DNA of 40,180 bases from a virus. The stretch lies in IMG/VR virus record IMGVR_UViG_3300045988_035205, positions 1 through 40,180 of that record; one strand, written 5' to 3'. The translations under genes and the position numbers were made by a program. Under the pieces are notes generated by a model. That model saw nothing but the letters and a program-made list of their open reading frames with translations. It ran no database searches and had not been told where the DNA came from. Positions 26,895 to 40,125 of this stretch are shown here, in pieces. How positions within the stretch are numbered: the stretch's first letter is position 1; every line of letters begins with the position of its first letter.

Positions 26895-27800
26895 ATGAAG
26901 GTCAGCTATTCTCTCAACGGCCAGCCGCTCGATTCCGAGCGGATGCGCGTGCTTGTAGGCACGACGCACTACACGGCGCTGTCGCCGATCGTGGACACCG
27001 TGCAGGTGCCTGGACGGCATGGCGTCATCGTCGGCTCGTCCATTCCGGTGTTGGATGCTCCGGAGCTGACAGTCAAGGTCGCGGCGTGGGGTGCTGATTC
27101 CGATTCGCTGATCGCGCGTTTCCGTGCCATGTGCCTGTCTGCCGCGAAGCTCACGCTCGGCAGAACGGAGACAACGGAGAGCGGCTATTCGCGCAGCATG
27201 GTCACTCGCGTCGTGTGCACGTCCTGCGAGCCGGACGATGATGAGAGGCCGTCCAGCGACCTGCGTGTCATGACCGCAGTTTTCCAATTGCCGGACGTGT
27301 TTTGGCGTGGCGTGCAGTGGCAGGAGGCGACGTTGGCCGCGTCGGGCGGCAGGCTGCTGCCGGGCGGGGTCTCCAAGCCGAGTAGCAAGGGGTATTGGAC
27401 GCGCTGGCAGGGATTGCCTAACGCCAGTCCTTCCGAGCTTTTCGACATCATGCCGGACGGCTGGCTGTCCAATGCGCCAATCGGCATACTGGTCTTGCGT
27501 TTCGGCGCAGTCACTGGTGTGACCATCAGTGACCCGGTGAGTGGCACGAATCTGCTGTGGGGCGGCAAACGTGACGCCTCGCGTCCTTATCTTTTCGTCG
27601 ATGTGGCTAATCGCAAGGCGTGGACGGCGGCCAATGCCGACGCATGGTCCGGTGGTACGGATGCGTCGAATGGCATCGACTGGACCACGGATCCATTGCA
27701 AGTGTGGCCCGCGATCGATTCTGGCGATTATCGCCTCGCAATCAAACAGACCGGCAGCGCCGACAAGGTGGTCTGCCGGTTTTTGCAATCCTGGGAGTGA
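26895..27800 (+). CDS. Distal tail protein (Dit)
   Basis: 301 aa directly after the tape measure. It contains a YWTRWQGLPNASPS junction motif at 27393-27434. Confidence 0.7.
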   Translation: MKVSYSLNGQPLDSERMRVLVGTTHYTALSPIVDTVQVPGRHGVIVGSSIPVLDAPELTVKVAAWGADSDSLIARFRAMCLSAAKLTLGRTETTESGYSRSMVTRVVCTSCEPDDDERPSSDLRVMTAVFQLPDVFWRGVQWQEATLAASGGRLLPGGVSKPSSKGYWTRWQGLPNASPSELFDIMPDGWLSNAPIGILVLRFGAVTGVTISDPVSGTNLLWGGKRDASRPYLFVDVANRKAWTAANADAWSGGTDASNGIDWTTDPLQVWPAIDSGDYRLAIKQTGSADKVVCRFLQSWE

Positions 27801-27803
27801 ATC

Positions 27804-30800
27804 ATGGCAAAGACTTTGCACGCGCGTCTCGTGGCCTATCGTCCATTCGGTGACCGACTCGGTGTGCTGGCCGAGCCGGTGAGCTTCAGCGCGTCCATGC
27901 TCCACAATGATGATGGCGCAATCAGCATCGAATACTCGCTGCTGTCCGGTGACGCTCAGGCTTTCGACCGCGAGCTTACGGACGGCCTCGAAGTGGCAGT
28001 GGAAGTCTCGGACGGTAGTGGCTTCAGGGAGCCGGATAATGCGCGATTCGTCATCACGGGACGCTCCGGTAAGACGGATGACCGCACCAAGACCGTCACC
28101 TACAGTGGCCAGTCGATTGGCTGGCTGCTGTCAAAGGCGGAAAACAATGATTCCTCGCACCTCATCGCCGATGGCGATAACAAGGGTAAAAGGCCATTTT
28201 ATTCGTCCAATCCGGGCACGATTATCAAGACCCTGCTTGACGAAAACCGTCAGCGTGGTGGCGTGGCCACCGGACTGTCGCTCGGCTTCGATACCGCGAG
28301 GGACGCGGGCGGCGCGGCATGGGCGAGGAAGTACACGCTTTACTATTCCTTGGGCACGGATCTGCAGACCATTCTCAGCTCGCTGGTCAATGGTGGCGGC
28401 TGCGACTGGCGCACAAGCGGCAGGGTACTCAAGCTTTGGAATGCGGACAGCACCGCCTTGAGCCGTGACCTGAGCGAGAGCATTGTGCTGCAATTGGCGC
28501 GTGACATCAGCGAAGCCCCATTCGAGGAGTCCATCGCCGACCTGGCATCAACCATCCTTGTCGAAGGTGACAATAATCTGCTCTTCCGCATGGATAATCC
28601 AGCTGCTCCGACGCCTTGGGGCAAGTGGGAATCCTATAGCTCGCAGGGTGGCGTGTCCGATAAGGATACCGCGCAGGCATTCATGCAGTCCACGCTTGAT
28701 GATGCGGCTAGGGTACGCGGCCAGTACACGCGCGATCTGGTGACTTCCGGCGTGGATAATCTACCGCTCATCGACTTCCACGCCGGCGACTGGATCACCG
28801 CGCCAACAGTCACTCACGGCGAGAAGGTGCGCGTCCAGGAAATCGATTTGAGCATGCGCCAGAACGAGGGCCTATCCTGCTCAATCGCTCTGAACGACAT
28901 CAAGTACGACGCTTCCGTGCGTCAGGCGAAGAAGATCAAGGGCATCACCGGTGGTGCCGCGTTGGCCGGTAGTGAGGGCGGCACGACCGCCTCGTCCGAT
29001 CGTGACCATCGCGTGCCGAAGGCTCCGCTTGGTCTTGTGGCGCAGACTGATGCCTATATCGGCAGCGACGGTTTCGCGCATGGTCTGGCCACCGCCATGT
29101 GGAGTGCGGTCATGCAGGCCACGAACAACACCGCCATCGAGATCTCGAACTATGCCGTCGAGTGGCGCAGGCACGTGGATGGCGCGCCCTGGCATTCCGC
29201 TGGCACGACGGATAAGACGCAGCTTGGCTTCGGCGGTTTGGATTGCGGCACGCAAATCGAGGTGCGCGTCAGGGCTGTGCCGACGTATTCGGACAAGCTT
29301 GGTGAATGGTCGAGCGTTTTCGTGGCCACCGTCGAATCGGACGTGACGCCTTGCTCTGTGCCATCCAAGCCGGTATTGTCGTCCGAGCTTGGCGTGGTGA
29401 CCGTCCACTGGGACGGCAGGACCTCCACCGGCGCGTCGATGGAATCGGACTTCGACCATGTCGAGGTCGGCGAGGGCGCTAACGCGGCCGGCATGACCGT
29501 CATCAGCGCCACGCAGGCAGGTCAGGGCGATTATCTCGTGACCGGTCTGACAGCCGGCTCCCAGCACTCCTACGCCTTGCGCTCCGTCGATCATGCGGGC
29601 AATCGTTCCGGCTGGTCGGCAGTCGCTTCGGTGACGGTCGCGTCGGCGGTGTCGCCGGAAGAGGTCAAGCAGATCCAGAAGGATTTGGCTGACAACAAGA
29701 CGGCGTTGATGGATAATACGGCGAAGCTCGATCAGGCGAGGAAGGATATCGCCGCGAATCAGGCCGCTCAGGCGGATACGGCGAATGCTCTCGAATCCGC
29801 GAAGTCGGACATCAAGGCGAACCAGTCGGCCATCAACTCTGCCAACGCAACGTTGAGTGATAACACCGCGAAGCTGACGCAGGCGCAGAAGGACATTCAG
29901 GCGAATAAGACTGGTCTTGATGCGGCGAATCAGACGCTCTCGCAGGCCAAGGCCGATCTGTCGCAGGCGCGGAGGGACATCGCGCAGACCAAAAGCGACC
30001 TGGCCACGGCGAACGGGGAGATCAGCAAGGCGAAGGAGTCGGCGGCGCAGGCGTATGCCGAAGCCCATAGCAAGAACCATACGTTTCGCGGTCCCGACGA
30101 GCCGAAGGGCAATCTCATCGTCGGTGACCTGTGGCTCAAGACGCAGAAGTATTGGACGAGGTGGAAGGGCGAGAAGAACGCAAGCCCATCACTGCTCGCG
30201 GACTTTTACACGTACTGGACCGGCGCGCCGAACAATTCTCCTTCCGTGCTCGTGCCATTGGCCGACCGCGTGATCGACACGCTTGTCTGGGATGGCTCCG
30301 CTTGGAACCACATGGGCTATGCCGATGTCGAGAAGAACGCAGACGAAATTTCCAAGGCTAAGTCGGATATCGCGGACAATGCCGCGAAGACCACCGACGC
30401 CAAGAAGGCTGCCGAGAACGCCGCTGCCGCAGCGAAAAACGCGCAGGGCACGGCTGACACGGCAAATGGTGCGGCGAAGACCGCGCAGGACACCGCCAAT
30501 GCGGCCAACGCCGCCGCGAAGAGCGCGACCGCGACCGCCGGTCAGGCCAAGGATGCCGCCAATGCGGCGCAGACCGCCGCCGAGAGCGCGAAGAAGACCG
30601 CTGGCAATGCGGAGACTTTGGCGAACACCGCCAACGCTTCGGCCAATGCGGCGAAGTCCGACGCGGCTTCGGCCAAGACGGACGCGTCGAATGCGAAGGC
30701 CACCGCCTCGAATGCGTCGAGTGTGGCCACGCAGGCCAAGGCCACCGCAGACAGCGCGGCACAATCCGCCACCGACGCGGCCACCGCCGCGCAGAAAGCG

Positions 30801-33053
30801 AATACGGCTGCTGCCGCCGCCGCTGGCGTGGCGAACGGCAAGGCCGACGTGCTTATCCAGGGCACGGCACCGGCCACGTCGATGCGCAAGGCTTCGACCT
30901 TGTGGATTGACACCACGAACGGTGCGAACACGCCGAAGCGCTGGAATGGCAGTGCTTGGGTGGCTGTGACCGACAAGGCCGCTACCGACGCCGCGAATGC
31001 GGCTGTCAAGGCGAATGATGCGGCCAAGACCGCTCAAGCCACCGCCGACAAGGCTTCGACCGCTGCCGCCAACGCGGCTTCTCAGGCTAATCAGGCTCAG
31101 GCCGCAGCCAAGAAGGCGCAGACAACCGCCGACGGCAAGAACCTCATCTACCGTGGCCCCGACGAACCGAATCATGACGGTCTGAAGCCGGGCGACATGT
31201 GGTGGCGCACGCAAAAGTATTGGACGAGGTGGAAAGGCGAGAAGAACAATTCGCCGTCCATGCTGGCCGACTTCTACACCTACTGGCAGGGAACGCCGAA
31301 CGCTTCACCAAGCGTCTTGGTGCCGCTCGCTGATCGCGTGGTGGAAGTCCTGACATGGGACGGTACGAGATTCGAGCCATTCGACCTCGTGGCGAACAAC
31401 ATCCTCGCTGCTGGAACCGTGGCCGCGAAGCATCTCGCTGCCGACTCCGTGACCGCTGAGAAGGTCAAGGCCAATGCCATCACGGTGGACAAGCTGGCTG
31501 CGAATTCGGTCACGACTGAAAAGCTGGTGGCCGACGCGGTGACCGCCACGAAACTCGCCGCCAACTCGGTGCAGGCGCGGAACATCGTCGCACTGGCCAT
31601 CACGTCCGACAAGATCGCGGCCAATTCGGTGACTACGGGCAAGCTGAAGGTCACTGAGGATATGACGGTGGCCTTGCTCAACGTCCACAAGATTCAGGCG
31701 GGCGACATTGCGGCTAATGCCATCACGACCGACAAGCTCGCCGCTGGCGCGGTCAATGCGGATAAATTGGCTGCTAATTCGGTGACTGCTGGCAAGGTGC
31801 AGACCAATGCCATCGGCACCGACAAGCTCGCCGCGAATGCCGTCACGACCGCGAAGCTGAAGGTCACTGAGGATATGACCGTGGCGCTGCTGAATGTGCA
31901 TAAGATTCAGGCGGGCGACATCGCCGCCAATGCTGTCACGACCGATAAGCTGGCCGCCAACGCGGTGAATGCGGATAAGCTGGCCGCTAATTCGGTCAAT
32001 GCGTCCAAGATTGTCACTGGTGCCATCACCGCCGACAAGCTCGCGGCAAACAGTGTGACGGCTGTCAAGATCGCGGCTGGCACCATCACGTCCGACAAGG
32101 TGGCGGCGGGCCAATTCAAAGGCTATGTCTTCACCGGCGCGATATTCCAGAGCTCCGAGGCCGAGAACACCGGCATGAAGCTCAACGGCACCGCATTGCA
32201 AATGTGGGACAGCAACCACAATCGCACCGTCTATCTTGACGGCGAAGGCAAGTCGAATCTGCTGACTGGCACGTTCCAAACCCGCACGAGCGGGCACAGG
32301 GTGCGCATCAGCCCGGATTATCAGACCTACATCATCGGCGGATCTGAGACTTTCACCGGTGATGGCATCGAATTCCCCGCTTACAACGGGTCCACCGCCT
32401 ACTTTTCGCATCCGGCCATCGCTTCTGTCATCCAGTCGAATCAGGTCGGCGCGATGGGCGAACTGGACTTGTGGAGCGGACACGTGAGCAAGAACGACCC
32501 TGCCGCGTTCATGTCTCTCAGATCGAAGCCGCGCAAGAAAGGCGGTACCGGCAGCGGCGGCGTCACATCCAGAGTGCATGCCGTGGCGAACACGGATTAC
32601 GACGAGGCGGACGAGAGCAAGAAAAGCAGCGCTTTCCTCACTCTGTCCGGCGATAGCGCGAACGGTTCGGAGTGCTGGCTCGAAGCGCAAGACGCGAACG
32701 GCGAGGTCGGAGTCGGCGCGAACATCGGCACCGGATACGTGTATCTCGGCGGCTATCTTGGCGGCATCACGAACCGTTTTACGTTCCATGCCCAGGCTGC
32801 GTGGAAGGCGTGGTATCCGAATCCCGGCTCGAAGATTGCGACCGGCGCTTCCATGCAAGTCGATTGCACGTTCAGCCCGACGAAATACGGCCACTATTAC
32901 GTCGTCGCGAACGCGGATTCACAATGGGCGGGCATCATCGCGCACCCGATGAACACGGGCGGCCAGAGCGGCTTCACATTGAAGCTGTATAACGCCGACC
33001 AGCCTTGCCCGGTGGATGTTTACGCGGAATTCCTGGCTTATTTGGTCAAGTGA
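27804..33053 (+). CDS. Tail-associated protein / tail fibre (Tal-like N-terminus, FN3-like region, Ala-rich coiled coil, AANSVT-type repeats, C-terminal receptor-binding region)
   Basis: 1749 aa directly after Dit. It has internal duplications (30087-30275 / 31152-31343 and 31641-31745 / 31854-31958). Confidence 0.85.
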   Translation: MAKTLHARLVAYRPFGDRLGVLAEPVSFSASMLHNDDGAISIEYSLLSGDAQAFDRELTDGLEVAVEVSDGSGFREPDNARFVITGRSGKTDDRTKTVTYSGQSIGWLLSKAENNDSSHLIADGDNKGKRPFYSSNPGTIIKTLLDENRQRGGVATGLSLGFDTARDAGGAAWARKYTLYYSLGTDLQTILSSLVNGGGCDWRTSGRVLKLWNADSTALSRDLSESIVLQLARDISEAPFEESIADLASTILVEGDNNLLFRMDNPAAPTPWGKWESYSSQGGVSDKDTAQAFMQSTLDDAARVRGQYTRDLVTSGVDNLPLIDFHAGDWITAPTVTHGEKVRVQEIDLSMRQNEGLSCSIALNDIKYDASVRQAKKIKGITGGAALAGSEGGTTASSDRDHRVPKAPLGLVAQTDAYIGSDGFAHGLATAMWSAVMQATNNTAIEISNYAVEWRRHVDGAPWHSAGTTDKTQLGFGGLDCGTQIEVRVRAVPTYSDKLGEWSSVFVATVESDVTPCSVPSKPVLSSELGVVTVHWDGRTSTGASMESDFDHVEVGEGANAAGMTVISATQAGQGDYLVTGLTAGSQHSYALRSVDHAGNRSGWSAVASVTVASAVSPEEVKQIQKDLADNKTALMDNTAKLDQARKDIAANQAAQADTANALESAKSDIKANQSAINSANATLSDNTAKLTQAQKDIQANKTGLDAANQTLSQAKADLSQARRDIAQTKSDLATANGEISKAKESAAQAYAEAHSKNHTFRGPDEPKGNLIVGDLWLKTQKYWTRWKGEKNASPSLLADFYTYWTGAPNNSPSVLVPLADRVIDTLVWDGSAWNHMGYADVEKNADEISKAKSDIADNAAKTTDAKKAAENAAAAAKNAQGTADTANGAAKTAQDTANAANAAAKSATATAGQAKDAANAAQTAAESAKKTAGNAETLANTANASANAAKSDAASAKTDASNAKATASNASSVATQAKATADSAAQSATDAATAAQKANTAAAAAAGVANGKADVLIQGTAPATSMRKASTLWIDTTNGANTPKRWNGSAWVAVTDKAATDAANAAVKANDAAKTAQATADKASTAAANAASQANQAQAAAKKAQTTADGKNLIYRGPDEPNHDGLKPGDMWWRTQKYWTRWKGEKNNSPSMLADFYTYWQGTPNASPSVLVPLADRVVEVLTWDGTRFEPFDLVANNILAAGTVAAKHLAADSVTAEKVKANAITVDKLAANSVTTEKLVADAVTATKLAANSVQARNIVALAITSDKIAANSVTTGKLKVTEDMTVALLNVHKIQAGDIAANAITTDKLAAGAVNADKLAANSVTAGKVQTNAIGTDKLAANAVTTAKLKVTEDMTVALLNVHKIQAGDIAANAVTTDKLAANAVNADKLAANSVNASKIVTGAITADKLAANSVTAVKIAAGTITSDKVAAGQFKGYVFTGAIFQSSEAENTGMKLNGTALQMWDSNHNRTVYLDGEGKSNLLTGTFQTRTSGHRVRISPDYQTYIIGGSETFTGDGIEFPAYNGSTAYFSHPAIASVIQSNQVGAMGELDLWSGHVSKNDPAAFMSLRSKPRKKGGTGSGGVTSRVHAVANTDYDEADESKKSSAFLTLSGDSANGSECWLEAQDANGEVGVGANIGTGYVYLGGYLGGITNRFTFHAQAAWKAWYPNPGSKIATGASMQVDCTFSPTKYGHYYVVANADSQWAGIIAHPMNTGGQSGFTLKLYNADQPCPVDVYAEFLAYLVK

Positions 33054-33065
33054 TTGGAGGAAATC

Positions 33066-33638
33066 TTGTCTGCGACTTTCGAAACGGATGAGAACAGTGG
33101 GCTTTGCATTATCCGCTGCAATCCGCCCATAAACGGGTCGGACAGTTTCGTGTTCACGATCGACGTGCTCGTCTCGTGGAAGGCGCTGCTCGGCCTTGCT
33201 TCGACCCGTGAAGCGATCGCCGCAATCATGCAGGGCAAGGAGGACACGAGCCGGTACGACCCGAAAACGGGGCGCGGCGTATGGACAGGCGCGTATGAGG
33301 CGCTTGAATCGGCGCTGAATGATTCCGCCACCGGCGTGAGCATGCTTGCGGCTGATGGGGAAGTGTTGAATGACCCGCTTACCGCCGCGCGGAATAAGGC
33401 GCGTGAGGGCATGAACCTGCCGGTCATGTCGAATGAGACGGACGCGAATCTCATTGCCACACTGTCCGCTGATGACTCCGATGAGGAGCCGTCGAGTGGC
33501 ATTGACGTGACCGTGACCAAGGACATTGAGGGATTGGACGATTTCCTCAATGACGAGTCCAGTCAATCAAATCTGGACGAGTGCGAGGAGAGATTTTACC
33601 AATCCCTCATGCCACGACCTCAAAACAACCAACAATAA
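33066..33638 (+). CDS. Hypothetical acidic protein (tail accessory?). An alternative TTG start lies at 33054.
   Basis: GGAGGAAATC precedes the TTG at 33066. The ORF is open to 33638. Confidence 0.5.
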   Translation: MSATFETDENSGLCIIRCNPPINGSDSFVFTIDVLVSWKALLGLASTREAIAAIMQGKEDTSRYDPKTGRGVWTGAYEALESALNDSATGVSMLAADGEVLNDPLTAARNKAREGMNLPVMSNETDANLIATLSADDSDEEPSSGIDVTVTKDIEGLDDFLNDESSQSNLDECEERFYQSLMPRPQNNQQ

Positions 33639-33649
33639 GGAGATTGATT

Positions 33650-33952
33650 ATGGCCGATGTGACCACTGAGACCACTACCGATACCACGCCTGCCGAGCTG
33701 TCTGGCGTGCTTGATTTGCGTCCGCCGAAGGAGTCGGTGCGAGCGGAATTGTGCCGTTTGGGATTGGAGTTTTCCAGCGCTGACGGCACCGCCGAATCGT
33801 GGCGCGACTACCAGCGTGGCGTGCTTGCGACGTTCGATGATTCCGGCACGTCCGTCACGTTGACGGACGTGAAGACGAATCTCGGCCGCACGCTCACCTT
33901 GGACGAGCTTAAGGCCGTGACTCGTATCAATACGATGACCGCCGCCGACTAG
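33650..33952 (+). CDS. Hypothetical protein
   Basis: AAGGAGATTGATT RBS precedes the ATG at 33650. Confidence 0.55.
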   Translation: MADVTTETTTDTTPAELSGVLDLRPPKESVRAELCRLGLEFSSADGTAESWRDYQRGVLATFDDSGTSVTLTDVKTNLGRTLTLDELKAVTRINTMTAAD

Positions 33953-33977
33953 CCCGTATTTCCCAGTTTTTTTTCAA

Positions 33978-34015
33978 CCCCTGCAATCCACACGGATTGC
34001 GGGGGTTTCGTATTT
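33978..34015 (+). terminator. Intrinsic terminator after the tail module
   Basis: CCCCTGCAATCC (33978-33989), ACAC loop and GGATTGCGGGGG (33994-34005) form a 12-bp stem with one G:U pair, followed by TTTCGTATTT. Confidence 0.7.
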
Positions 34016-34026
34016 AAGGAGACATT

Positions 34027-34200
34027 TTGACTCAGATTCCAGCCGACGCGAACGACGTCATCGACACGCTCTCCGCGCAAATCGGCACTCTCAACAAGCA
34101 AAACGCAATCCTGACCAGCCAACTCGCGGCGGCCATGAAACTGATCCCGCAGGATGTGCTCGACGCAACCAAGGGGGTGGATGATGACAGTGAGGATTAA
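34027..34200 (+). CDS. Small coiled-coil-like ORF (57 aa), TTG start
   Basis: AAGGAGAC lies 4 nt upstream of the TTG. Codons are GC3-rich. It overlaps the start of cassette A. It is below the ORF-track cutoff. Confidence 0.4.
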   Translation: MTQIPADANDVIDTLSAQIGTLNKQNAILTSQLAAAMKLIPQDVLDATKGVDDDSED

Positions 34201-34714
34201 CTGGTTCCCCGACCCGAACATCACGCAGACGTTTGGAGCGTATGCGCCGAGCACCATGAAAGTGGATTTTCCGGTCGTGGCCCGCAGGAACTGGCTGCGC
34301 GCGACCGTGCTCACCGTTGGAGACGGTTACGCGCAGTATTCGCTGCAAGGCGACCGTCTTCCACCGGCTGGAACCTACCACGTGCACTGCTGTGCCTTCG
34401 CGAAGCACGCCAACGCATTCGCCCGCGTCTACACGAAGGTCGGTGGCAAGTATACGGTGCTATTGCAAAAAGAAATAGCGGATGGCACGACGGTCGATGT
34501 CGACGGGACCATAACGATTCCGGACGACTGCGAGGAACTCCTCATCCGCACCACAGCAGGCAAAGTGGTCGGCGCGATAGTCATGCTGAGCGATATTCTC
34601 ATCGAACGCGCCGACACATATGGCACTGCCGTGGGGGGGGGCTTCCGGGCTTCTTCACCGGGGATACGATGCCACGCGATTAAGGCGATTCGTCGGGCGG
34701 GTGATGCCCGATGA
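34181..34714 (+). CDS. RBP-like jelly-roll cassette A. As sequenced (G9) it reads through to 34714. A G10 or G7 allele would end at 34683 with the conserved tail ...FFTGDTMPRD.
   Basis: AAGGGGGTGG RBS. It is a paralogue of cassettes B and C. The conserved C-terminal motif is present but out of frame downstream of the G9 tract at 34633-34641. Confidence 0.6.
   Translation: MMTVRINWFPDPNITQTFGAYAPSTMKVDFPVVARRNWLRATVLTVGDGYAQYSLQGDRLPPAGTYHVHCCAFAKHANAFARVYTKVGGKYTVLLQKEIADGTTVDVDGTITIPDDCEELLIRTTAGKVVGAIVMLSDILIERADTYGTAVGGGFRASSPGIRCHAIKAIRRAGDAR
34633..34641 (+). repeat. Homopolymeric G9 tract
   Basis: gtGGGGGGGGGc. The count was confirmed through two independent ORF-track translations (AVGGGF and PWGGAS). 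Confidence 0.9.
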
Positions 34715-35079
34715 TAGTCACGAACCTATGCACGAGCCCATCCTCGACCATCACCCTGAAAGCCGACAAGTGGGTGAATATCACGACCCTTCCGAGCGTG
34801 AATGGGGCGACATATCAGATCAGCGTCGAGGTGAACGTCACAGGCGGCACTATCTCGATAATCGGAGCGGATGGCGACATCAACGCAAGACAACGTGTCA
34901 GCTACAAGATGATCATCAACAATTCCCATCCGATATCAATGAGTTATCACGTCAAGTCAGGCAGTCCGACCGTCACAGTGACGAACATGCTCATCTGCAC
35001 GTGGGACGAATACCAGGCGAACAAGACCCTGCTCGACGGCATCGAATATTTCGACGGGGATACGATGCCCCGAGCCTGA
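34711..35079 (+). CDS. RBP-like jelly-roll cassette B
   Basis: The N-terminus IVTNLCTSPSS and the C-terminus EYFDGDTMPRA are shared with A and C. Confidence 0.65.
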   Translation: MIVTNLCTSPSSTITLKADKWVNITTLPSVNGATYQISVEVNVTGGTISIIGADGDINARQRVSYKMIINNSHPISMSYHVKSGSPTVTVTNMLICTWDEYQANKTLLDGIEYFDGDTMPRA

Positions 35080-35101
35080 CCCTCGCACTGGGGGTGGTGG
35101 C

Positions 35102-35476
35102 ATGAGTGTCATCACGAATTATGCGTCCAGCCCGCTTGCCGTTTGCACCGTCAATGGTGCTGGCCGTAACGATTTCCCAGGCTGGAATGTCACTAATGAT
35201 GCGCCGGCCGAGCACGTCGTGAGCGCCAGAGTCGAGCTTGTGTCCGGCACTGGCACGATCAGATTCGGATGGGACAGTGATCACGTGCTTGATAAGACGG
35301 GACGTCTGACAGCTTATCCGAGACAAAATATTTTCCCTCAAATCACGGTCATCACCACCGGTGATGCCGTCTGGAAAGTCAGCCACGTTATTGTCACCTC
35401 ACAAGCGGAATACAGTCAGCTGACATCAAAATACGGGCTTGTTTATTTCGATGGCGGCACTATGCCAAAAGACTAA
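35102..35476 (+). CDS. RBP-like jelly-roll cassette C
   Basis: N-terminus VITNYASSPLA, C-terminus VYFDGGTMPKD. GGGGGTGG RBS. Markedly more A/T-ending codons than neighbouring genes. Confidence 0.65.
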   Translation: MSVITNYASSPLAVCTVNGAGRNDFPGWNVTNDAPAEHVVSARVELVSGTGTIRFGWDSDHVLDKTGRLTAYPRQNIFPQITVITTGDAVWKVSHVIVTSQAEYSQLTSKYGLVYFDGGTMPKD

Positions 35477-35497
35477 CCAATTTTAAGGAGATGTGAT

Positions 35498-35887
35498 GTG
35501 ATTCAAACGTTTCTAGCAGGGTTTGGCGGTGTGGGCGGCGCGTGCGCGCTCATCACGCTCGGCCTGAAAGTCTGGCCGGGCGCTTTGGAAGGATTGGCGA
35601 CCGGCCTGTACAGCCACGTCAATCCCGAAAGACTGCCATACAATTCGCCGCTCTCCCAGCATTTCGCCAAAACACGAATGCTCGGAGAACGTACCGAAAA
35701 ATTCGACGAGCGCATGGACGAGTTGTGCCGTGACACCATCAAAAACACGATCATCAGCCTGATCTACGGCGACCAGTCACACGACCATTCCGAGGCCGTC
35801 CGATACGAGCTGGCTAAGCTCGAAAAACTCGACGCGCAATGCTGGATCATCTCAGCAGCCGAAAAATACTTGGAGGACCGGCAATGA
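35498..35887 (+). CDS. Membrane-anchored hypothetical protein (N-terminal TM helix)
   Basis: GTG start 7 nt after AAGGAG. N-terminus FLAGFGGVGGACALITLGL. Confidence 0.55.
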   Translation: MIQTFLAGFGGVGGACALITLGLKVWPGALEGLATGLYSHVNPERLPYNSPLSQHFAKTRMLGERTEKFDERMDELCRDTIKNTIISLIYGDQSHDHSEAVRYELAKLEKLDAQCWIISAAEKYLEDRQ

Positions 35888-35970
35888 CACGACTGCTCAT
35901 CGCGGGCGGAGCCTACCTATTGCTCCTCGCACTCATTCTCATTTTCAACCACGGCGCTCACATGCGCTGA
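35884..35970 (+). CDS. Tiny hydrophobic ORF (28 aa, single TM)
   Basis: MTRLLIAGGAYLLLLALILIFNHGAHMR with an ATGA overlap. Confidence 0.4.
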   Translation: MTRLLIAGGAYLLLLALILIFNHGAHMR

Positions 35971-35983
35971 CACCGATTTTCAG

Positions 35984-36013
35984 GGCCATCACTTCAGTGG
36001 TGGCCTTTTCGTT
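35984..36013 (+). terminator. Intrinsic terminator
   Basis: GGCCATCAC (35984-35992), TTCA loop and GTGGTGGCC (35997-36005), followed by TTTTCGTTT. Confidence 0.65.
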
Positions 36014-36043
36014 TGCCTCGAAAGAGGCGGAAAGGAGGCGGTC

Positions 36044-36163
36044 GTGATCGATGTGACCATGACGCCGGAAATGACACCGCAGGGCGACAGTCTGCCGCCC
36101 ATTGACATCCCGGTCGTGTCCGAGACGGATGCGGCCAAGGCTGTCGAAGGATTGGAGGACTGA
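36044..36163 (+). CDS. Small acidic ORF (39 aa) upstream of the endolysin
   Basis: GTG start 5 nt after AAGGAGG. The stop lies 1 nt before the endolysin ATG. Confidence 0.4.
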   Translation: MIDVTMTPEMTPQGDSLPPIDIPVVSETDAAKAVEGLED

Positions 36164-36164
36164 C

Positions 36165-36959
36165 ATGGCAAGCGTAAGCGCTTTGATTAACCGCATGCGT
36201 TACTGGTGCGCCGTGGCCAACATGGGCTACTCGCAGGCGGACCGCTGGAACTTCAACCCCTCAGGTGGCAACTGCGATTGCTCGTCCCTTGTCATCCACT
36301 GTCTCAAGGAGGCGGGCTTCGACACCGGCTCGGCCACCTACACCGGCAATCTGAGCGGCAATCTGACCCGTCGCGGTTGGATTCGTCTGCCGGCGAACGG
36401 CAGCCCGCAGCCTGGCGACATCCTGCTCAACGACGTGCACCACGTGGCCGTCTATCTGGGCAGCGGCAAGCTCGCGCAGGCGTCCATCAGCGAGCGGGGT
36501 ACCGCCTACGGGAAGGCTGGCGATCAGACTGGCCGCGAAACCAACATCCGCGCCTACTACAACTATCCGTGGAGCTGCTACCTCCGCTACGGCGGCGGAA
36601 ACACCTCTTCGGCATCCACTGGCGCATTGGCCGTGGATGGCAATGTCGGCCCGGCCACCGTGCGCCGTTGGCAGCAGGTGATGGGCACTGCGGTGGATGG
36701 CATCATCAGCGGCCAGCAGGTGCCTGACGAACGCACCTACTGGCGTCCGGCCATCGATTCGAGCGTGGTTCGCTACGGTGCTGGCGGCAGTGATCTGATC
36801 CGCGCCGTGCAGCGTCGCCTGGGCTGTGGTGTTGATGGTCTGCTTGGCCCTGCCACCATTCGCGCCATCCAAGCGCACTACGGCTTGGCGCAGGACGCAT
36901 CATTCGGTCCTGGTACGGCACGCGCCTTGCAGACGGCACTCAATCAAAACCGATTCTAA
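36165..36959 (+). CDS. Endolysin: Cys/His peptidoglycan amidase- or peptidase-type catalytic domain plus two PG-binding-like repeats
   Basis: YSQADRW...DCSSLVIHCL...GDILLNDVHHVAVYLG are the catalytic Cys/His motifs. The C-terminal part has DGNVGPATVRRWQ and DGLLGPATIRAIQ repeats. Confidence 0.8.
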   Translation: MASVSALINRMRYWCAVANMGYSQADRWNFNPSGGNCDCSSLVIHCLKEAGFDTGSATYTGNLSGNLTRRGWIRLPANGSPQPGDILLNDVHHVAVYLGSGKLAQASISERGTAYGKAGDQTGRETNIRAYYNYPWSCYLRYGGGNTSSASTGALAVDGNVGPATVRRWQQVMGTAVDGIISGQQVPDERTYWRPAIDSSVVRYGAGGSDLIRAVQRRLGCGVDGLLGPATIRAIQAHYGLAQDASFGPGTARALQTALNQNRF

Positions 36960-36970
36960 GGGGGTTTAAT

Positions 36971-37249
36971 ATGGCTCAACATGCAGCGCCAACGACTTTG
37001 GAGACCACAGTCAATAATCTGACCAACGAGTGCGAGGACGGTCAGGACAACCAGCAGCCGACCGCTTACACGCCCGTCTTTTCCAAGGGCGTGCGTACCG
37101 TGGTCTACGTGCTGGGTCTGATCGCATCGTGCGTTGGTCTTGGCTTCATGACCTTCGGTGACGCCGCGATCGGCGGATACATCAGCACCGTGGCCGGCTT
37201 CATCGCTTCCGGCTTGGGCGTGGCCTACAATCCACTCCGCCGCAATTAA
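36971..37249 (+). CDS. Holin (two C-terminal TM helices)
   Basis: VVYVLGLIASCVGLGFMTF and IGGYISTVAGFIASGLGVAY. AAGGGGG RBS. It lies directly after the endolysin. Confidence 0.65.
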   Translation: MAQHAAPTTLETTVNNLTNECEDGQDNQQPTAYTPVFSKGVRTVVYVLGLIASCVGLGFMTFGDAAIGGYISTVAGFIASGLGVAYNPLRRN

Positions 37250-37356
37250 TTTTCGGGCTTGAAAATCAAACTCGCGCCGGAAACTCAACATCAGGTGTGG
37301 AAAAATTTGCGGCACTGTAGTGTCCGTGGAATTTTTTACACCCTGTTTTTAAATCT

Positions 37357-37392
37357 GCCCCTTCTCCATTTTGGAGGAGGGGCTTTGCTTTT
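37357..37392 (+). terminator. Intrinsic terminator after the lysis genes
   Basis: GCCCCTTCTCC (37357-37367), ATTTT loop and GGAGGAGGGGC (37373-37383), followed by TTTGCTTTT. Confidence 0.7.
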
Positions 37393-37404
37393 AGGACTTT
37401 CAAA

Positions 37405-38214
37405 ATGGGCATCAGACAGCAGACGATTGACGATTATGGGTCGTTCGTGGAGAAATTCAAGCCGAAGAAGACCACGGATGACTGCTACACCCCCCCCGCA
37501 GTGTATGGGGTGATAAAAGACTGGGCTTGCCGGGAATACGGTATAGACCCTGATAAGGTGGTGCGCCCGTTCTATCCGGGCGGGGACTACGAGCGGTTCG
37601 ACTATTCGGGCGGTGCGGTGGTTGTGGATAATCCGCCGTTCAGCATCCTGTCGAAGATCTGCACGTTCTATCGGACGGAGCAAATTCCGTTCTTCCTGTT
37701 CGCGCCGTATCTCACGATCTTCTCCAGCACGTCGCGCAACGGAGCGCACATGATCGTCACGGATTCGACCATCGAATACGCGAACGGCGCGCAGGTCAAC
37801 ACGTCGTTCGTGACGAGTTTCGGTGATGACCTGATCCGCACCGCGCCGGATCTGGCCAACGCGATAGACGAGACCGTGAAGCGCGTCAGGAAAGAGCAAC
37901 GCAGGCATCCGCCGAAATACGCGTATCCGCGTGAACTGCTTACCGTGAGCAGGCTCGGGAAGATCGGCAGGCAGGTCGAGTTCCGCGTCAAGGCTTCGGA
38001 CGTTGCGTTCACGAGGGCTCTCGACTCGCAGAAGGCCGTGAAGAAGGCCATCTACGGCGGCGGCTATCTCCTGAGCGAAGCTAAGGCCGCGGAACTGAAG
38101 GCCGCGGAACTGAAGGCCGCAGAACTAAAGGCCGCAGAAGACGTGACAGTCTGGCCTCTCTCCGAAACCGAAAGGCGGATCATCGAAAACCTCGCGCAAG
38201 AATCGCGCGGTTGA
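37405..38214 (+). CDS. Orphan DNA methyltransferase (amino-MTase type, NPPF motif); no cognate nuclease in the window
   Basis: VVVDNPPFS (motif IV-like) and CYTPPAVY near the N-terminus. It is a stand-alone gene between two terminators. The exact family and target base are unverified. Confidence 0.6.
   Translation: MGIRQQTIDDYGSFVEKFKPKKTTDDCYTPPAVYGVIKDWACREYGIDPDKVVRPFYPGGDYERFDYSGGAVVVDNPPFSILSKICTFYRTEQIPFFLFAPYLTIFSSTSRNGAHMIVTDSTIEYANGAQVNTSFVTSFGDDLIRTAPDLANAIDETVKRVRKEQRRHPPKYAYPRELLTVSRLGKIGRQVEFRVKASDVAFTRALDSQKAVKKAIYGGGYLLSEAKAAELKAAELKAAELKAAEDVTVWPLSETERRIIENLAQESRG
37490..37497 (+). repeat. Homopolymeric C8 tract inside the methyltransferase 5' region
   Basis: acCCCCCCCCg encodes T-P-P at codons 29-31. 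Confidence 0.9.
38083..38139 (+). repeat. 15-bp in-frame tandem repeat (about 3.8 copies) encoding (KAAEL)n
   Basis: AAGGCCGCGGAACTG x2, AAGGCCGCAGAACTA, then the partial AAGGCCGCAGAA. Confidence 0.85.
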
Positions 38215-38251
38215 ATTCCTGTTGGAATATTTTGCACCCACATGCAACATC

Positions 38252-38290
38252 GCCCCTCTCTCAGCTCTTAAGCTGGGGGAGGGGCGTTTT
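38252..38290. terminator. Terminator between the convergent methyltransferase and xis-operon
   Basis: GCCCCTCTCTCAGCT (38252-38266), CTTA loop and AGCTGGGGGAGGGGC (38271-38285) form a 15-bp stem with two G:U pairs, followed by GTTTT. Confidence 0.65.
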
Positions 38291-38295
38291 CGTGT

Positions 38296-38496
38296 TTATT
38301 CGGTCTTGTGTTTGCGTGGCCTGCCTCCGCCGACGCCGCGTCCTGGGCGCTGCGCGTTCCATTGGTCGATGGTGTCGGGGAGCCAGCCGCGCGTGCGGCC
38401 GATGGTTACGTCCGGCTCGGGCAGGTCGTAGGAGGCGGCGTTGGCGACGCCGAGGCGTTCGGAGACCTGTTTGATGCCGAGGTATTCAGTCGTCAT
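38296..38496 (-). CDS. Excisionase-like HTH protein (MerR/AlpA-type)
   Basis: EYLGIKQVSERLGVANAASYD...GWLPDTIDQWNAQRPGRG. It lies adjacent to int. Confidence 0.65.
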   Translation of the reverse strand: MTTEYLGIKQVSERLGVANAASYDLPEPDVTIGRTRGWLPDTIDQWNAQRPGRGVGGGRPRKHKTE

Positions 38497-38650
38497 TGTC
38501 CCTCCTGTCCCTGATGAGCGTGGCGATGCTCCAGATTCCCGCCGCGAGGCCGAACAGTCCGGCCTGCCATGCTTTCCCGGCGCAGCCGAGCGAGAGCGAT
38601 GTCAGGCCGCATACGATGCCGCATACGGCGAACAGTGTGCTTGTCTTCAT
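38486..38650 (-). CDS. Small two-TM membrane protein (54 aa)
   Basis: MKTSTLFAVCGIVCGLTSLSLGCAGKAWQAGLFGLAAGIWSIATLIRDRRDNDD. It overlaps the xis start by 11 nt. It is below the ORF-track cutoff. Confidence 0.5.
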   Translation of the reverse strand: MKTSTLFAVCGIVCGLTSLSLGCAGKAWQAGLFGLAAGIWSIATLIRDRRDNDD

Positions 38651-38955: not shown

Positions 38956-40125
38956 ATGGCCTACACGATCCGCCAATACCAGACGAAAAGCGGAAAAAGA
39001 TACGAAGTCAGATACCGTAAGCCGGACGGCACGGACACAGGCAAACGCGGCTTCAAACGCAAAATGGACGCCGATGCCTGGGGCGCAGCGAACGTGACCA
39101 CAGCTAAAAGCGTCGGAGCGTACATCGACCCACAAGCCGGAAGACGCTTGGTCGAAGACTTCTGGGAGCCATGGCTGGCCGCAAAAAAGACCAAGGCCAA
39201 ACCAAGCTACATCAAGTCATTGGAGGATGCTTGGCGCGCGCATGTCATGCCTCAATGGGGAGTACGCGAAGTCCAGTCCATCACAATGGACGAGGTGCAG
39301 CGGTGGGTCACCGATCTGGCTGGCAGGCGCAGCGCGTCAGTGACCATCCGTGCTGAAAACCTCCTGCGCAGTCTCATGGAGAGGGCAAAGGCCGATCGGT
39401 GCATCCACGACAATCCATGCGACGGCATCGAGCTGCCGCGCAAGCAGGTGCGGAAGCATGTCTATCTGTCGGCCGATGAATTGTCTCGTGTGGCGATGCA
39501 GTGCGGGTGGCGTGAGCCGATCGTGCTGACCTTGGGCCTGTGCGGCATGAGGTGGGGCGAGCTCGTGGCGCTCCGTGTCGAGGATGTCGATCTGCAACGC
39601 TGTCGACTGCATATATATAGGAGCATCACGCGTCTTTCCAGCAGGATGGTGGAGACCGACCCGAAGACCCATGATGGACGCTCGGTGATGTTCCCCTTGG
39701 TGTTGCGTCCGCTGCTCGCCAAGCAATGCGAGGGGCGCGAGCCGTCCGATTTTCTTTTCACCGCTCCCGGCGAGCCTCTGGACGAACCGATGGGCAACGG
39801 CTGGAATCCGACGCGGCACGATGGGTGGTTCGCGGTGGCGCTTCGCCGCGCGGGCGTGGAGCGTGGCCACATGACGATTCACGATCTGCGGCATACCGCC
39901 GCTTCGCTCATGGTGCAGTCCGGCGCTAATGTCAAGACCGTGCAGCGGCAGCTCGGCCACAAGTCGGCCGCGATGACGTTGGACGTGTACGCGGACCTGT
40001 TCGACGATGATCTGGACGACCTGTCGGAGCGTATGGGCGGTCTGCTGTTTTCGCAGGATGTGGGCAAAATGTGGGCAAAAGCGACGCAAGGCATTGATGG
40101 AACCGTTGAAACGGCAAGTGTCTGA
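38956..40125 (+). CDS. int: Tyrosine-type site-specific integrase
   Basis: N-terminal arm-binding-like domain (YEVRYRKPDG), a SAM-like core-binding domain, and a catalytic region with MRWGEL, HDLRHTAASL and LGHKSAAMTLDVYADL (R, H-x-x-R, Y). The gene ends 14 nt before attR. Confidence 0.9.
   Translation: MAYTIRQYQTKSGKRYEVRYRKPDGTDTGKRGFKRKMDADAWGAANVTTAKSVGAYIDPQAGRRLVEDFWEPWLAAKKTKAKPSYIKSLEDAWRAHVMPQWGVREVQSITMDEVQRWVTDLAGRRSASVTIRAENLLRSLMERAKADRCIHDNPCDGIELPRKQVRKHVYLSADELSRVAMQCGWREPIVLTLGLCGMRWGELVALRVEDVDLQRCRLHIYRSITRLSSRMVETDPKTHDGRSVMFPLVLRPLLAKQCEGREPSDFLFTAPGEPLDEPMGNGWNPTRHDGWFAVALRRAGVERGHMTIHDLRHTAASLMVQSGANVKTVQRQLGHKSAAMTLDVYADLFDDDLDDLSERMGGLLFSQDVGKMWAKATQGIDGTVETASV
40058..40079. 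repeat. Paired ATGTGGGCAAA repeats in the right att arm, inside the int 3' end; candidate arm-type integrase site
   Basis: ATGTGGGCAAA occurs twice in tandem. The 17-nt core is identical to 131-148 and lies 63 nt before the attR core. Confidence 0.55.

Follow-up and report, generated by a model that had tools for sequence, protein, structure and literature searches.

Repeats near the 3′ end of a gene can switch its C-terminus among three reading frames, sometimes fusing the next gene or removing an anchor motif. This C-terminal phase variation is a recognised class that has been described in Neisseria gonorrhoeae (Zelewska, 2016; PMC5320596), with further examples, taken here as they are cited in that paper, in Helicobacter canadensis (Snyder, 2010) and in the switching of a cell-wall anchor motif in Streptococcus agalactiae (Janulczyk, 2010). 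Here we analyze a locus of similar design in IMG/VR virus record IMGVR_UViG_3300045988_035205, of which the whole stretch of 40,180 nt (positions 1 to 40,180) is called the window. The window is a prophage with a G+C content of about 58–60%, and it appears to be of Bifidobacterium adolescentis type; this assignment, like the host range of the prophage family as a whole, rests on the protein names of close relatives. Between its tail-fibre gene and its lysis genes lies an array of three small genes, termed A, B and C, all on the same strand, and A carries a run of G residues near its 3′ end. We consider it probable that A is a C-terminal phase-variation contingency gene of a temperate Bifidobacterium siphophage, in which slippage in the poly-G tract switches the protein among three forms. 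As in the bacterial cases, the tract lies near the 3′ end, three frames come into play, one frame may run into the next coding sequence, and a C-terminal attachment motif may be turned on or off. The bacterial examples are surface-protein genes, whereas the tract described here belongs to a prophage tail-proximal array, in which the off-frames stop on the starts of the next two genes and one of them is kept stop-free through a whole gene.

Hypermutable poly-G tracts are reportedly also present in the receptor-binding genes of Campylobacter phages (Sorensen et al., 2021; Cell Rep 35:109214). Contingency loci have been described in phages T2 and T4 (PMC12633550). These systems resemble the present one in that a homopolymer in a phage gene gives rise to frameshifted subpopulations with a proposed bet-hedging role in host interaction; they differ in that those phages are lytic and infect Gram-negative hosts, whereas the window belongs to a temperate actinobacterial siphophage. 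The Campylobacter phage and T2/T4 loci are, as far as known, on/off switches of a whole gene. In contrast, the tract in A would remove only a C-terminal peptide and, as we propose, redirect ribosomes to the neighboring genes.

Within bifidobacteria, the G10–12 tracts of sortase-dependent pilus loci in B. breve slip often in replication, with instability of about 37% for G11 and about 60% for G12 in single-colony cultures (Penno et al., 2022; PMC9187656). These tracts occur in the same host genus and likewise switch translation between frames; however, they are located on the host chromosome, join two open reading frames (ORFs) near the 5′ part of the pilin gene and act as an on/off switch, and no phage genes are mentioned in that paper. 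The Rin shufflon carried by prophages of B. breve and of B. longum relies on inversion by a tyrosine recombinase at 11-bp rix sites (Mavrich et al., 2018; PMC6109161). It shares with our array the host genus, the prophage tail module and the presence of several alternative C-terminal receptor-binding cassettes, but the array studied here is in direct orientation, without rix-like inverted repeats or an adjacent invertase, and its variation would come from slippage. Bifidobacteria are key gut commensals whose phages are almost uncultured, and to our knowledge the Rin shufflon is the only described source of host-recognition variation in these phages. The present locus suggests poly-G slippage as a second diversification route, in a prophage family common in B. 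adolescentis and in human-gut viromes. Our literature search turned up no description of such a poly-G switch for prophages of bifidobacteria, nor of off-frames stop-proofed through a neighboring gene so as to end on successive start codons.

The array comprises the following elements, listed by position and strand.

34181–34714, plus strand: gene A as read here, 177 aa from the ATG at 34181; the ORF is open from 34154, and homologues start at the ATG at 34184
34633–34641, plus strand: poly-G tract of nine residues (G9), encoding a Gly-Gly-Gly linker; the sole G run of seven or more in the window
34642–34683, plus strand: canonical C-terminal tail of A, LPGFFTGDTMPRD and a stop; off-frame here, in frame with G10 or G7
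34642–35105, plus strand: third frame, reached from the canonical frame by +1 G or -2 G; open across B, with its TGA at 35103–35105 overlapping the ATG of C
34695–34714, plus strand: conserved Shine-Dalgarno (SD)-like sequence GGGCGGGTGAT, then the ATGA in which the stop of off-frame A overlaps the start of B
34711–35079, plus strand: gene B, 122 aa, ending in YFDGDTMPRA and a stop
35090–35105, plus strand: conserved SD-like sequence GGGGGTGGTGG, then the ATGA at the start of C
35102–35476, plus strand: gene C, 124 aa, ending in YFDGGTMPKD and a stop; rich in A/T at third codon positions

An initial annotation of this DNA had proposed three same-strand, single-domain genes with similar N-terminal segments and a common C-terminal motif. 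The three ORFs are present as described, as are the N-terminal motifs (RINWFPDPN in A, IVTNLCTSP in B and VITNYASSP in C). The C-terminal motif is found on B and C, but in A it lies off-frame behind the G9 run: the tail LPGFFTGDTMPRD is displaced by a single base and would be restored by +1 G or -2 G. As read here, the C-terminus of A is ...ADTYGTAVGGG-FRASSPGIRCHAIKAIRRAGDAR, the protein ends in ...GGGFRASSPGIRCHAIKAIRRAGDAR, and the product corresponds to a β-sandwich resembling a carbohydrate-binding module (CBM) followed by an off-frame tail of 24 aa. The TGA stop of this frame (34712–34714) overlaps the ATG of B as ATGA. The 15-mer CGGGGATACGATGCC noted at the ends of A and B does occur exactly twice, at 34659 and 35055, where it merely encodes the shared GDTMP motif.

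We collected relatives by scanning IMG/VR with the 17-mer immediately downstream of the tract, which yielded about 110 contigs; these may be partly redundant, although 72 of 85 B sequences were unique. Tract length varied widely among them (G5 in 1, G7 in 8, G8 in 13, G9 in 43, G10 in 36, G11 in 7 and G12 in 3), and one further tract of G16 was found at a contig end. The upstream frame of A, assigned from its N-terminal motif, could be determined at 88 loci, comprising at least seven divergent A alleles: 38 were in frame, 32 were in the state seen in the window and 18 were in the third frame. Three pairs of contigs with 100% identical flanks (3.0, 3.0 and 1.8 kb), and one pair with 99.9% identity over 3 kb, differed only in the tract, with G9/G7, G8/G9, G9/G10 and G9/G12 in the four pairs. 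An interrupted run was present in three variants (L001, L006 and L077), each of them locked in frame.

The protein record reflects the same pattern. Homologues of A in a collection of 5.8 billion proteins fell into three length classes with three different tails, of about 165 aa (tail ...GGGLPGFFTGDTMPRD), about 176 aa (...GGGFRASSPG..., as in the window) and about 305 aa (continuing as ...GG(G)ASGLLHRG... through B), and a single cluster at 90% identity contained NCBI proteins from B. adolescentis in all three forms (166/167, 176/177 and 306/308 aa). Current annotation pipelines divide gene A into "hypothetical proteins" of 165, 176 and 305 aa. A slippage-prone homopolymer is located inside a coding region, after codon 150 of about 165; its length varies with conserved flanks, and a change in length shifts both frame and product, as is characteristic of contingency loci. 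The body of A remains constant and the C-terminus differs, with one frame extending downstream, as is characteristic of C-terminal phase variation. Taken together, the comparisons indicate a tract that appears hypermutable yet conserved.

These length differences bear on the possibility that transcriptional slippage or ribosomal frameshifting generates all three products in fixed proportions, much like the frameshifts of phage tail chaperones or tail extensions, with the DNA variation being secondary. Polymerases are known to slip on long homopolymers, and siphophage major tail proteins have C-terminal extensions with CBM or Ig domains that are made by frameshifting; moreover, the three-frame layout described below would be equally useful to slippage at the RNA level. 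However, programmed sites are normally fixed, whereas the DNA tract here spans lengths of G5 to G12 and is not the same in contigs that are otherwise identical, and G-tract switching in Bifidobacterium pili has been ascribed to replication slippage on chromosomal DNA (PMC9187656). We therefore consider recoding unlikely as the primary cause, although a small chance must be kept for it and the two processes are not mutually exclusive. A programmed frameshift or transcriptional slippage at a fixed slippery sequence was rejected because the tract length itself varies in the DNA.

We next consider where the three frames end. The canonical frame stops 13 codons past the tract. At 92 of 98 loci, the off-frame found in the window first meets a stop at the TGA within the ATGA of B. 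About 152 codons make up the third frame, which crosses both spacers (A-B and B-C) and the whole of B; at 78 of 98 loci it is first closed by the TGA within the ATGA that starts the third gene, at +455, +458 or +461, and at 88 of the 98 it closes on an ATGA of some kind. The non-coding spacers were 24 or 27 nt and 19 or 22 nt long in the variants observed, and these lengths differ by multiples of three. The same layout was also observed with an unrelated 145-aa allele in the B slot and in a lineage with FFTAQTAPY tails. In arrays that do not contain B (L054, L087, L093 and L097), the window-type frame enters the next cassette in frame, which predicts a two-module fusion consisting of the A domain, a linker and the complete next module, and the other off-frame stops on the ATGA of that cassette.

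The frame of B that is entered from A in the third state was stop-free in 70 of the 72 unique B sequences, whereas the other off-frame contained 2–10 stops. A stop arises in the entered frame when a B codon with T in its third position precedes a codon starting with AA, AG or GA, and we used these at-risk sites as a measure of constraint. T was found at 2 of 1753 at-risk sites, compared with 1099 of 5428 (20%) non-risk sites, while in control genes from elsewhere in the window T filled 4–34% of sites of this class. Among third-slot genes, the corresponding frame was open in only 1 of 63 cases, with 2.4 stops per 100 codons, and among synonymous shuffles of the B gene of the window the probability of an open frame was 0.029. 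The off-frame across B is thus held open by selection. Such purging of stops requires that ribosomes read this frame in nature, and provides independent evidence that the off states are expressed. We also asked whether the off-frame encodes a conserved overlapping protein, and rejected this: its amino acid identity (0.59) is no higher than that of a control frame (0.63), so that only openness, and not a second protein sequence, is demonstrably selected. Near-total stop purging in the alternative frame of a neighboring gene is a rare sign, drawn from genomes alone, that a contingency locus has "off" states which are translated and affect fitness.

On this basis, we propose that the poly-G tract encodes a Gly linker between a CBM-like β-sandwich and a short peptide, (F/Y)(F/D)xGDTMP, which is also carried by B and C, and that slipped-strand mispairing during DNA replication would alter its length. 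Three forms would result, namely the complete A protein, the A domain with an unrelated tail of 24 aa (the state of the window), and the A domain with an extension of ~150 aa through B in the wrong frame. Because the off-frames end on the ATGA at the starts of B and C, ribosomes translating a frameshifted A would be handed to a downstream start instead of being released inside the operon, and the overlaps may in this way shield or adjust the translation of B, of C and of the lysis genes that lie downstream. A, B and C are presumably tail-associated glycan-binding modules, the shared C-terminal peptide may be needed for function, for example for docking to a common tail-tip site, and the array may have a role in adsorption. 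Switching could then produce virions with or without a functional module A, as a form of bet-hedging in host recognition.

A more elaborate version, which we offer only tentatively and which may well be wrong, is that the tract acts as a three-position selector through frame-dependent coupling and occlusion, so that virions would be of three nested kinds, {A,B,C}, {B,C} and {C}. With the tract in frame, complete A would be made, followed by B and C. Loss of one G would cost A its tail and bring ribosomes to a stop on the ATG of B, giving B and C. Gain of one G would carry ribosomes past the B start and through B in the wrong frame, occluding B, until they stop on the ATG of C and yield mainly C; the downstream gene would have been "stop-proofed" by evolution to permit this read-through.

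Several observations weigh against a phase-variable A coupled to its neighbors. Tail genes of prophages are silent in lysogeny. B and C each have their own SD-like sequence, so they need not depend on coupling. Small hairpins are predicted over the SD/start regions of B and C (-3.8 and -6.9 kcal/mol), which we take as no more than a hint, and we found no compensatory covariation in them. Terminator-like hairpins bracket the unit that contains the array (33976–34007 and 35982–36007). A G9 run was present in 16 of 100 shuffles of the window, so the run alone is statistically ordinary and the argument is carried by the comparative pattern. Finally, the tract variation was seen between assemblies and could partly reflect homopolymer errors, and the near-even spread over three frames could be neutral drift at a mutable site.

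The last points lead to an alternative in which the tract differences are sequencing or assembly errors, or neutral frameshifts in silent prophages, and A is simply broken in the window. Homopolymers are error-prone, Illumina sequencing has had trouble at G-tracts (PMC9187656), and a near-even filling of the frames is what one would expect without selection. Yet the tract persists across divergent A alleles, at least seven of them, and also in a second lineage whose tail motif differs, even though Gly can be encoded without a G run, and both off-frames finish on downstream starts in about 80–94% of loci. In addition, the near absence of T at at-risk sites, relative to control genes, could evolve only if the off-frame is translated, and all three forms are present in isolate genomes. 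We consider error or decay to be the least probable of the explanations weighed here, and retain a switchable A as the preferred reading.

The predicted structure of A is consistent with its tract being placed where a frame change does little harm to the domain. The in-frame model was made on P0173, the closest in-frame homologue (84% identical), with a pLDDT of 82.8 and a pTM of 0.81; it contains a β-sandwich at about residues 20–145, and the GGG linker and tail (149–166) have pLDDT values below 50. Foldseek searches of PDB and BFVD with this model gave E values of 3e-7 to 1e-5 (about 1e-7 at best) and TM values of 0.5–0.64. The PDB-type matches were CBM4, CBM22, CBM16 and CBM61 modules and the CBA120 TSP4 and K2-2 tailspikes, and those in BFVD were tail fibres and minor tail proteins of Bacillus, Arthrobacter, Gordonia, Mycobacterium and Lactococcus phages. 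A is thus predicted to be a CBM4/22-like β-sandwich of the jelly-roll type. Since the tract lies between this domain and a flexible, conserved peptide, a frame change would spare the domain and replace only the peptide. A shares the modeled β-jelly-roll fold with these CBMs and with the similar domains found in phage tailspikes, tail fibres and minor tail proteins, but it has no sequence-level relationship to them and is a stand-alone protein of 165 aa. Its family is narrow, with 36 clusters among 1.84 billion representatives in a profile search, and in that search we found no convincing case of the A module embedded in a larger protein. Sequence searches of Pfam, PHROGs and PDB with A (repaired), B and C gave no significant match.

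The initial annotation had viewed each of the three proteins as an isolated jelly-roll or carbohydrate-binding module of the kind found in large tail proteins, and had taken them as paralogues. The first view is borne out for A by the P0173 model and its Foldseek matches. The B model, built from a mixed-family alignment, is all-β but of low confidence (pLDDT 60.7), with weak matches to CBMs in PDB (E about 5e-3, TM about 0.4). Regarding the second view, the B profile aligned with the profile of the third slot, which includes the C gene of the window, over its full length (97% probability, E 3.5e-11), whereas the alignment of A with the B and C profiles was confined to the last ~30 residues, from the last β-strand through the tail (65%, E 6e-5). 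B and C are therefore homologous, and A shares only its termini with them, with no detectable homology in the core. In GDTMP-tail arrays, every cassette matching the motif search carried such a tail, and in TAxY-type arrays the motif search found no GDTMP-type tail. The shared tails would fit a common partner, but also common descent.

Both B and the third slot are highly diverse. B falls into 1115 clusters at the 90% identity level; 120 of these were listed (P0001–P0120), 115 of them with a length of exactly 122 aa. The ratio of nonsynonymous to synonymous substitutions (dN/dS) is about 0.9 overall, about 1.05 for residues 17–100 and 0.4 at the C-terminus, and nucleotide diversity is near equal across the three codon positions and spread over the whole gene. 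This polymorphism suggests diversifying selection or mosaic recombination. The third slot (35102–35476 in the window, and loci L002–L119) holds at least seven unrelated-looking allele families of 122–167 aa, which begin with (I/V)(T/V/Q)N(L/Y/H)xxxP and end with (F/L)xG(D/G)(T/L/S)MP. It appears to be a site of cassette exchange, with the conserved ends and spacers as potential anchors for recombination. The unusual codons of C, with an A/T-ending fraction of 0.44 compared with 0.20 in a capsid-like gene, are in keeping with such exchange and with the earlier suggestion that C was acquired separately. A comparison of cassettes across relatives, which had been recommended, found A plus two further cassettes in 74 of 93 arrays.

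One might therefore suppose that the three genes are constitutive modules, additive or alternative, that are made together and diversified by cassette exchange only, as the initial annotation had in essence proposed. The polymorphism of B, the allele families of the third slot with their conserved ends, and the possibility that ends and spacers anchor recombination would all be in keeping with this idea. However, a static set leaves unexplained the conserved, length-variable tract, the three tail classes and the selected open frame across B, and the tract together with the three-frame layout ties A to the starts of B and C. We consider a purely static array very unlikely; cassette exchange probably operates alongside the tract, not in its place, and slippage in A remains our preferred explanation for the variable C-terminus.

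Two other diversification systems were examined and rejected. A classical shufflon, already doubted in the initial annotation, does not agree with cassettes that are all in direct orientation, inverted repeats that are short, imperfect and chance-like, and a sole recombinase-like ORF that is the integrase-like one at 38956–40125. As for the target of a diversity-generating retroelement, no long direct repeat was found in 33000–38500, a reverse transcriptase was not sought across the whole window, and the variation in B is gene-wide and affects all codon positions.

The surroundings of the array are as follows.

24102–26879: predicted tape-measure gene, named from position and size
26895–27800: predicted Dit-position gene, named on the same basis
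27804–33053: predicted Tal/tail-fibre gene, 1749 aa, named on the same basis
33976–34007, plus strand: terminator-like hairpin with a 14-bp stem and T-rich tail, upstream of the unit
34027–34200, plus strand: 57-aa ORF, first gene of the unit, with its 3′ end overlapping the start of A and weak coiled-coil-type matches
35498–35887, plus strand: 129-aa ORF, hydrophobic and Gly/Ala/Leu-rich at its N-terminus; marks the downstream limit of the array, which is conserved
35982–36007, plus strand: terminator-like hairpin after the 129-aa ORF, before the endolysin gene
36102–36959: endolysin with ELLD, NlpC/P60 and PG-binding domains
36971–37249: 92-aa ORF with a hydrophobic C-terminal half
37357–37383, plus strand: terminator-like hairpin after the 92-aa ORF
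38956–40125: tyrosine-recombinase-like ORF, probably the integrase; sole recombinase-like ORF

The upstream terminator and the small ORF before the array had both been predicted previously and were recovered here, and the small ORF is conserved in locus L002, where it likewise precedes A. The gene order is shared by a syntenic prophage from a B. adolescentis assembly, which reads Tal, 189 aa, 104 aa, 56 aa, A, B, C, 133 aa, lysis genes and integrase. When a genome collection was scanned with the 17-mer, the only relatives among the matches listed were B. ruminantium DSM 6489 (L166) and L220, the rest being chance matches. Bifidobacterium phage PMBT6 (L240, MK932884.1) matches the window only in the 129-aa ORF and the lysin region (77% identity). 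At 31228–32100 of its record, PMBT6 carries an integrase gene on the opposite strand within the tail region, between small hypothetical genes and a gene for a "tail fiber protein", a placement that recalls the layout of the Rin shufflon.

This context raises the alternative of a moron or lysogeny cassette, made up of the 57-aa ORF, genes A, B and C, and the 129-aa ORF. Such an accessory unit would be expressed from the prophage, for example with a role in exclusion or host benefit, and A, B and C would not be virion parts. The spot between the tail and lysis modules is the classical position of a moron, and the bracketing hairpins, the atypical codon usage of C and the absence of Pfam or PHROGs family matches would agree with such an origin. 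However, we found no promoter-like site above shuffle expectation; by eye, the N-termini of A, B and C have no hydrophobic signal-like segment; and A has a fold that matches domains found in the tail fibres, tailspikes and minor tail proteins of phages. Diversification systems for receptor-binding proteins of Bifidobacterium prophages are also located in the tail module, as in the case of the Rin shufflon (PMC6109161), and PMBT6 has its integrase gene among tail-region genes. An accessory cassette is thus improbable, though it deserves some small weight, and we continue to favor a tail-associated role for the array.

Some additional features of the neighborhood were observed. In the 1749-aa protein at the Tal position, a segment of ~60 aa occurs twice (…YWTRWKGEKN(A/N)SPS(L/M)LADFYTYW(T/Q)G…SPSVLVPLADRV…), and there are long coiled-coil-like stretches rich in Ala, Lys and Thr as well as "AANSVT..KL" repeat units. 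Downstream of the array, the late region appears to be split into short units by the terminator-like hairpins at 35982–36007 and 37357–37383.

A second homopolymer, a C8 tract at 37490–37497, is located inside an ORF of 269 aa (37405–38214) that matches phrog_21498 (E 3e-85) and has no Pfam match. The tract encodes the PP of a DDCYTPP motif, which we presume to resemble the DxWyTP motif of phage Dam-type methyltransferases. Among 25 related contigs, the tract was C8, and hence in frame, in 16, C9 in 6 and C7 in 3, which makes this ORF a candidate for another phase-variable gene within the prophage family. Close to its C-terminus, at 38083–38127, the ORF also contains a 15-nt repeat, present three times in tandem (AAGGCCGCGGAACTG) and encoding a repeated (K)AAEL.

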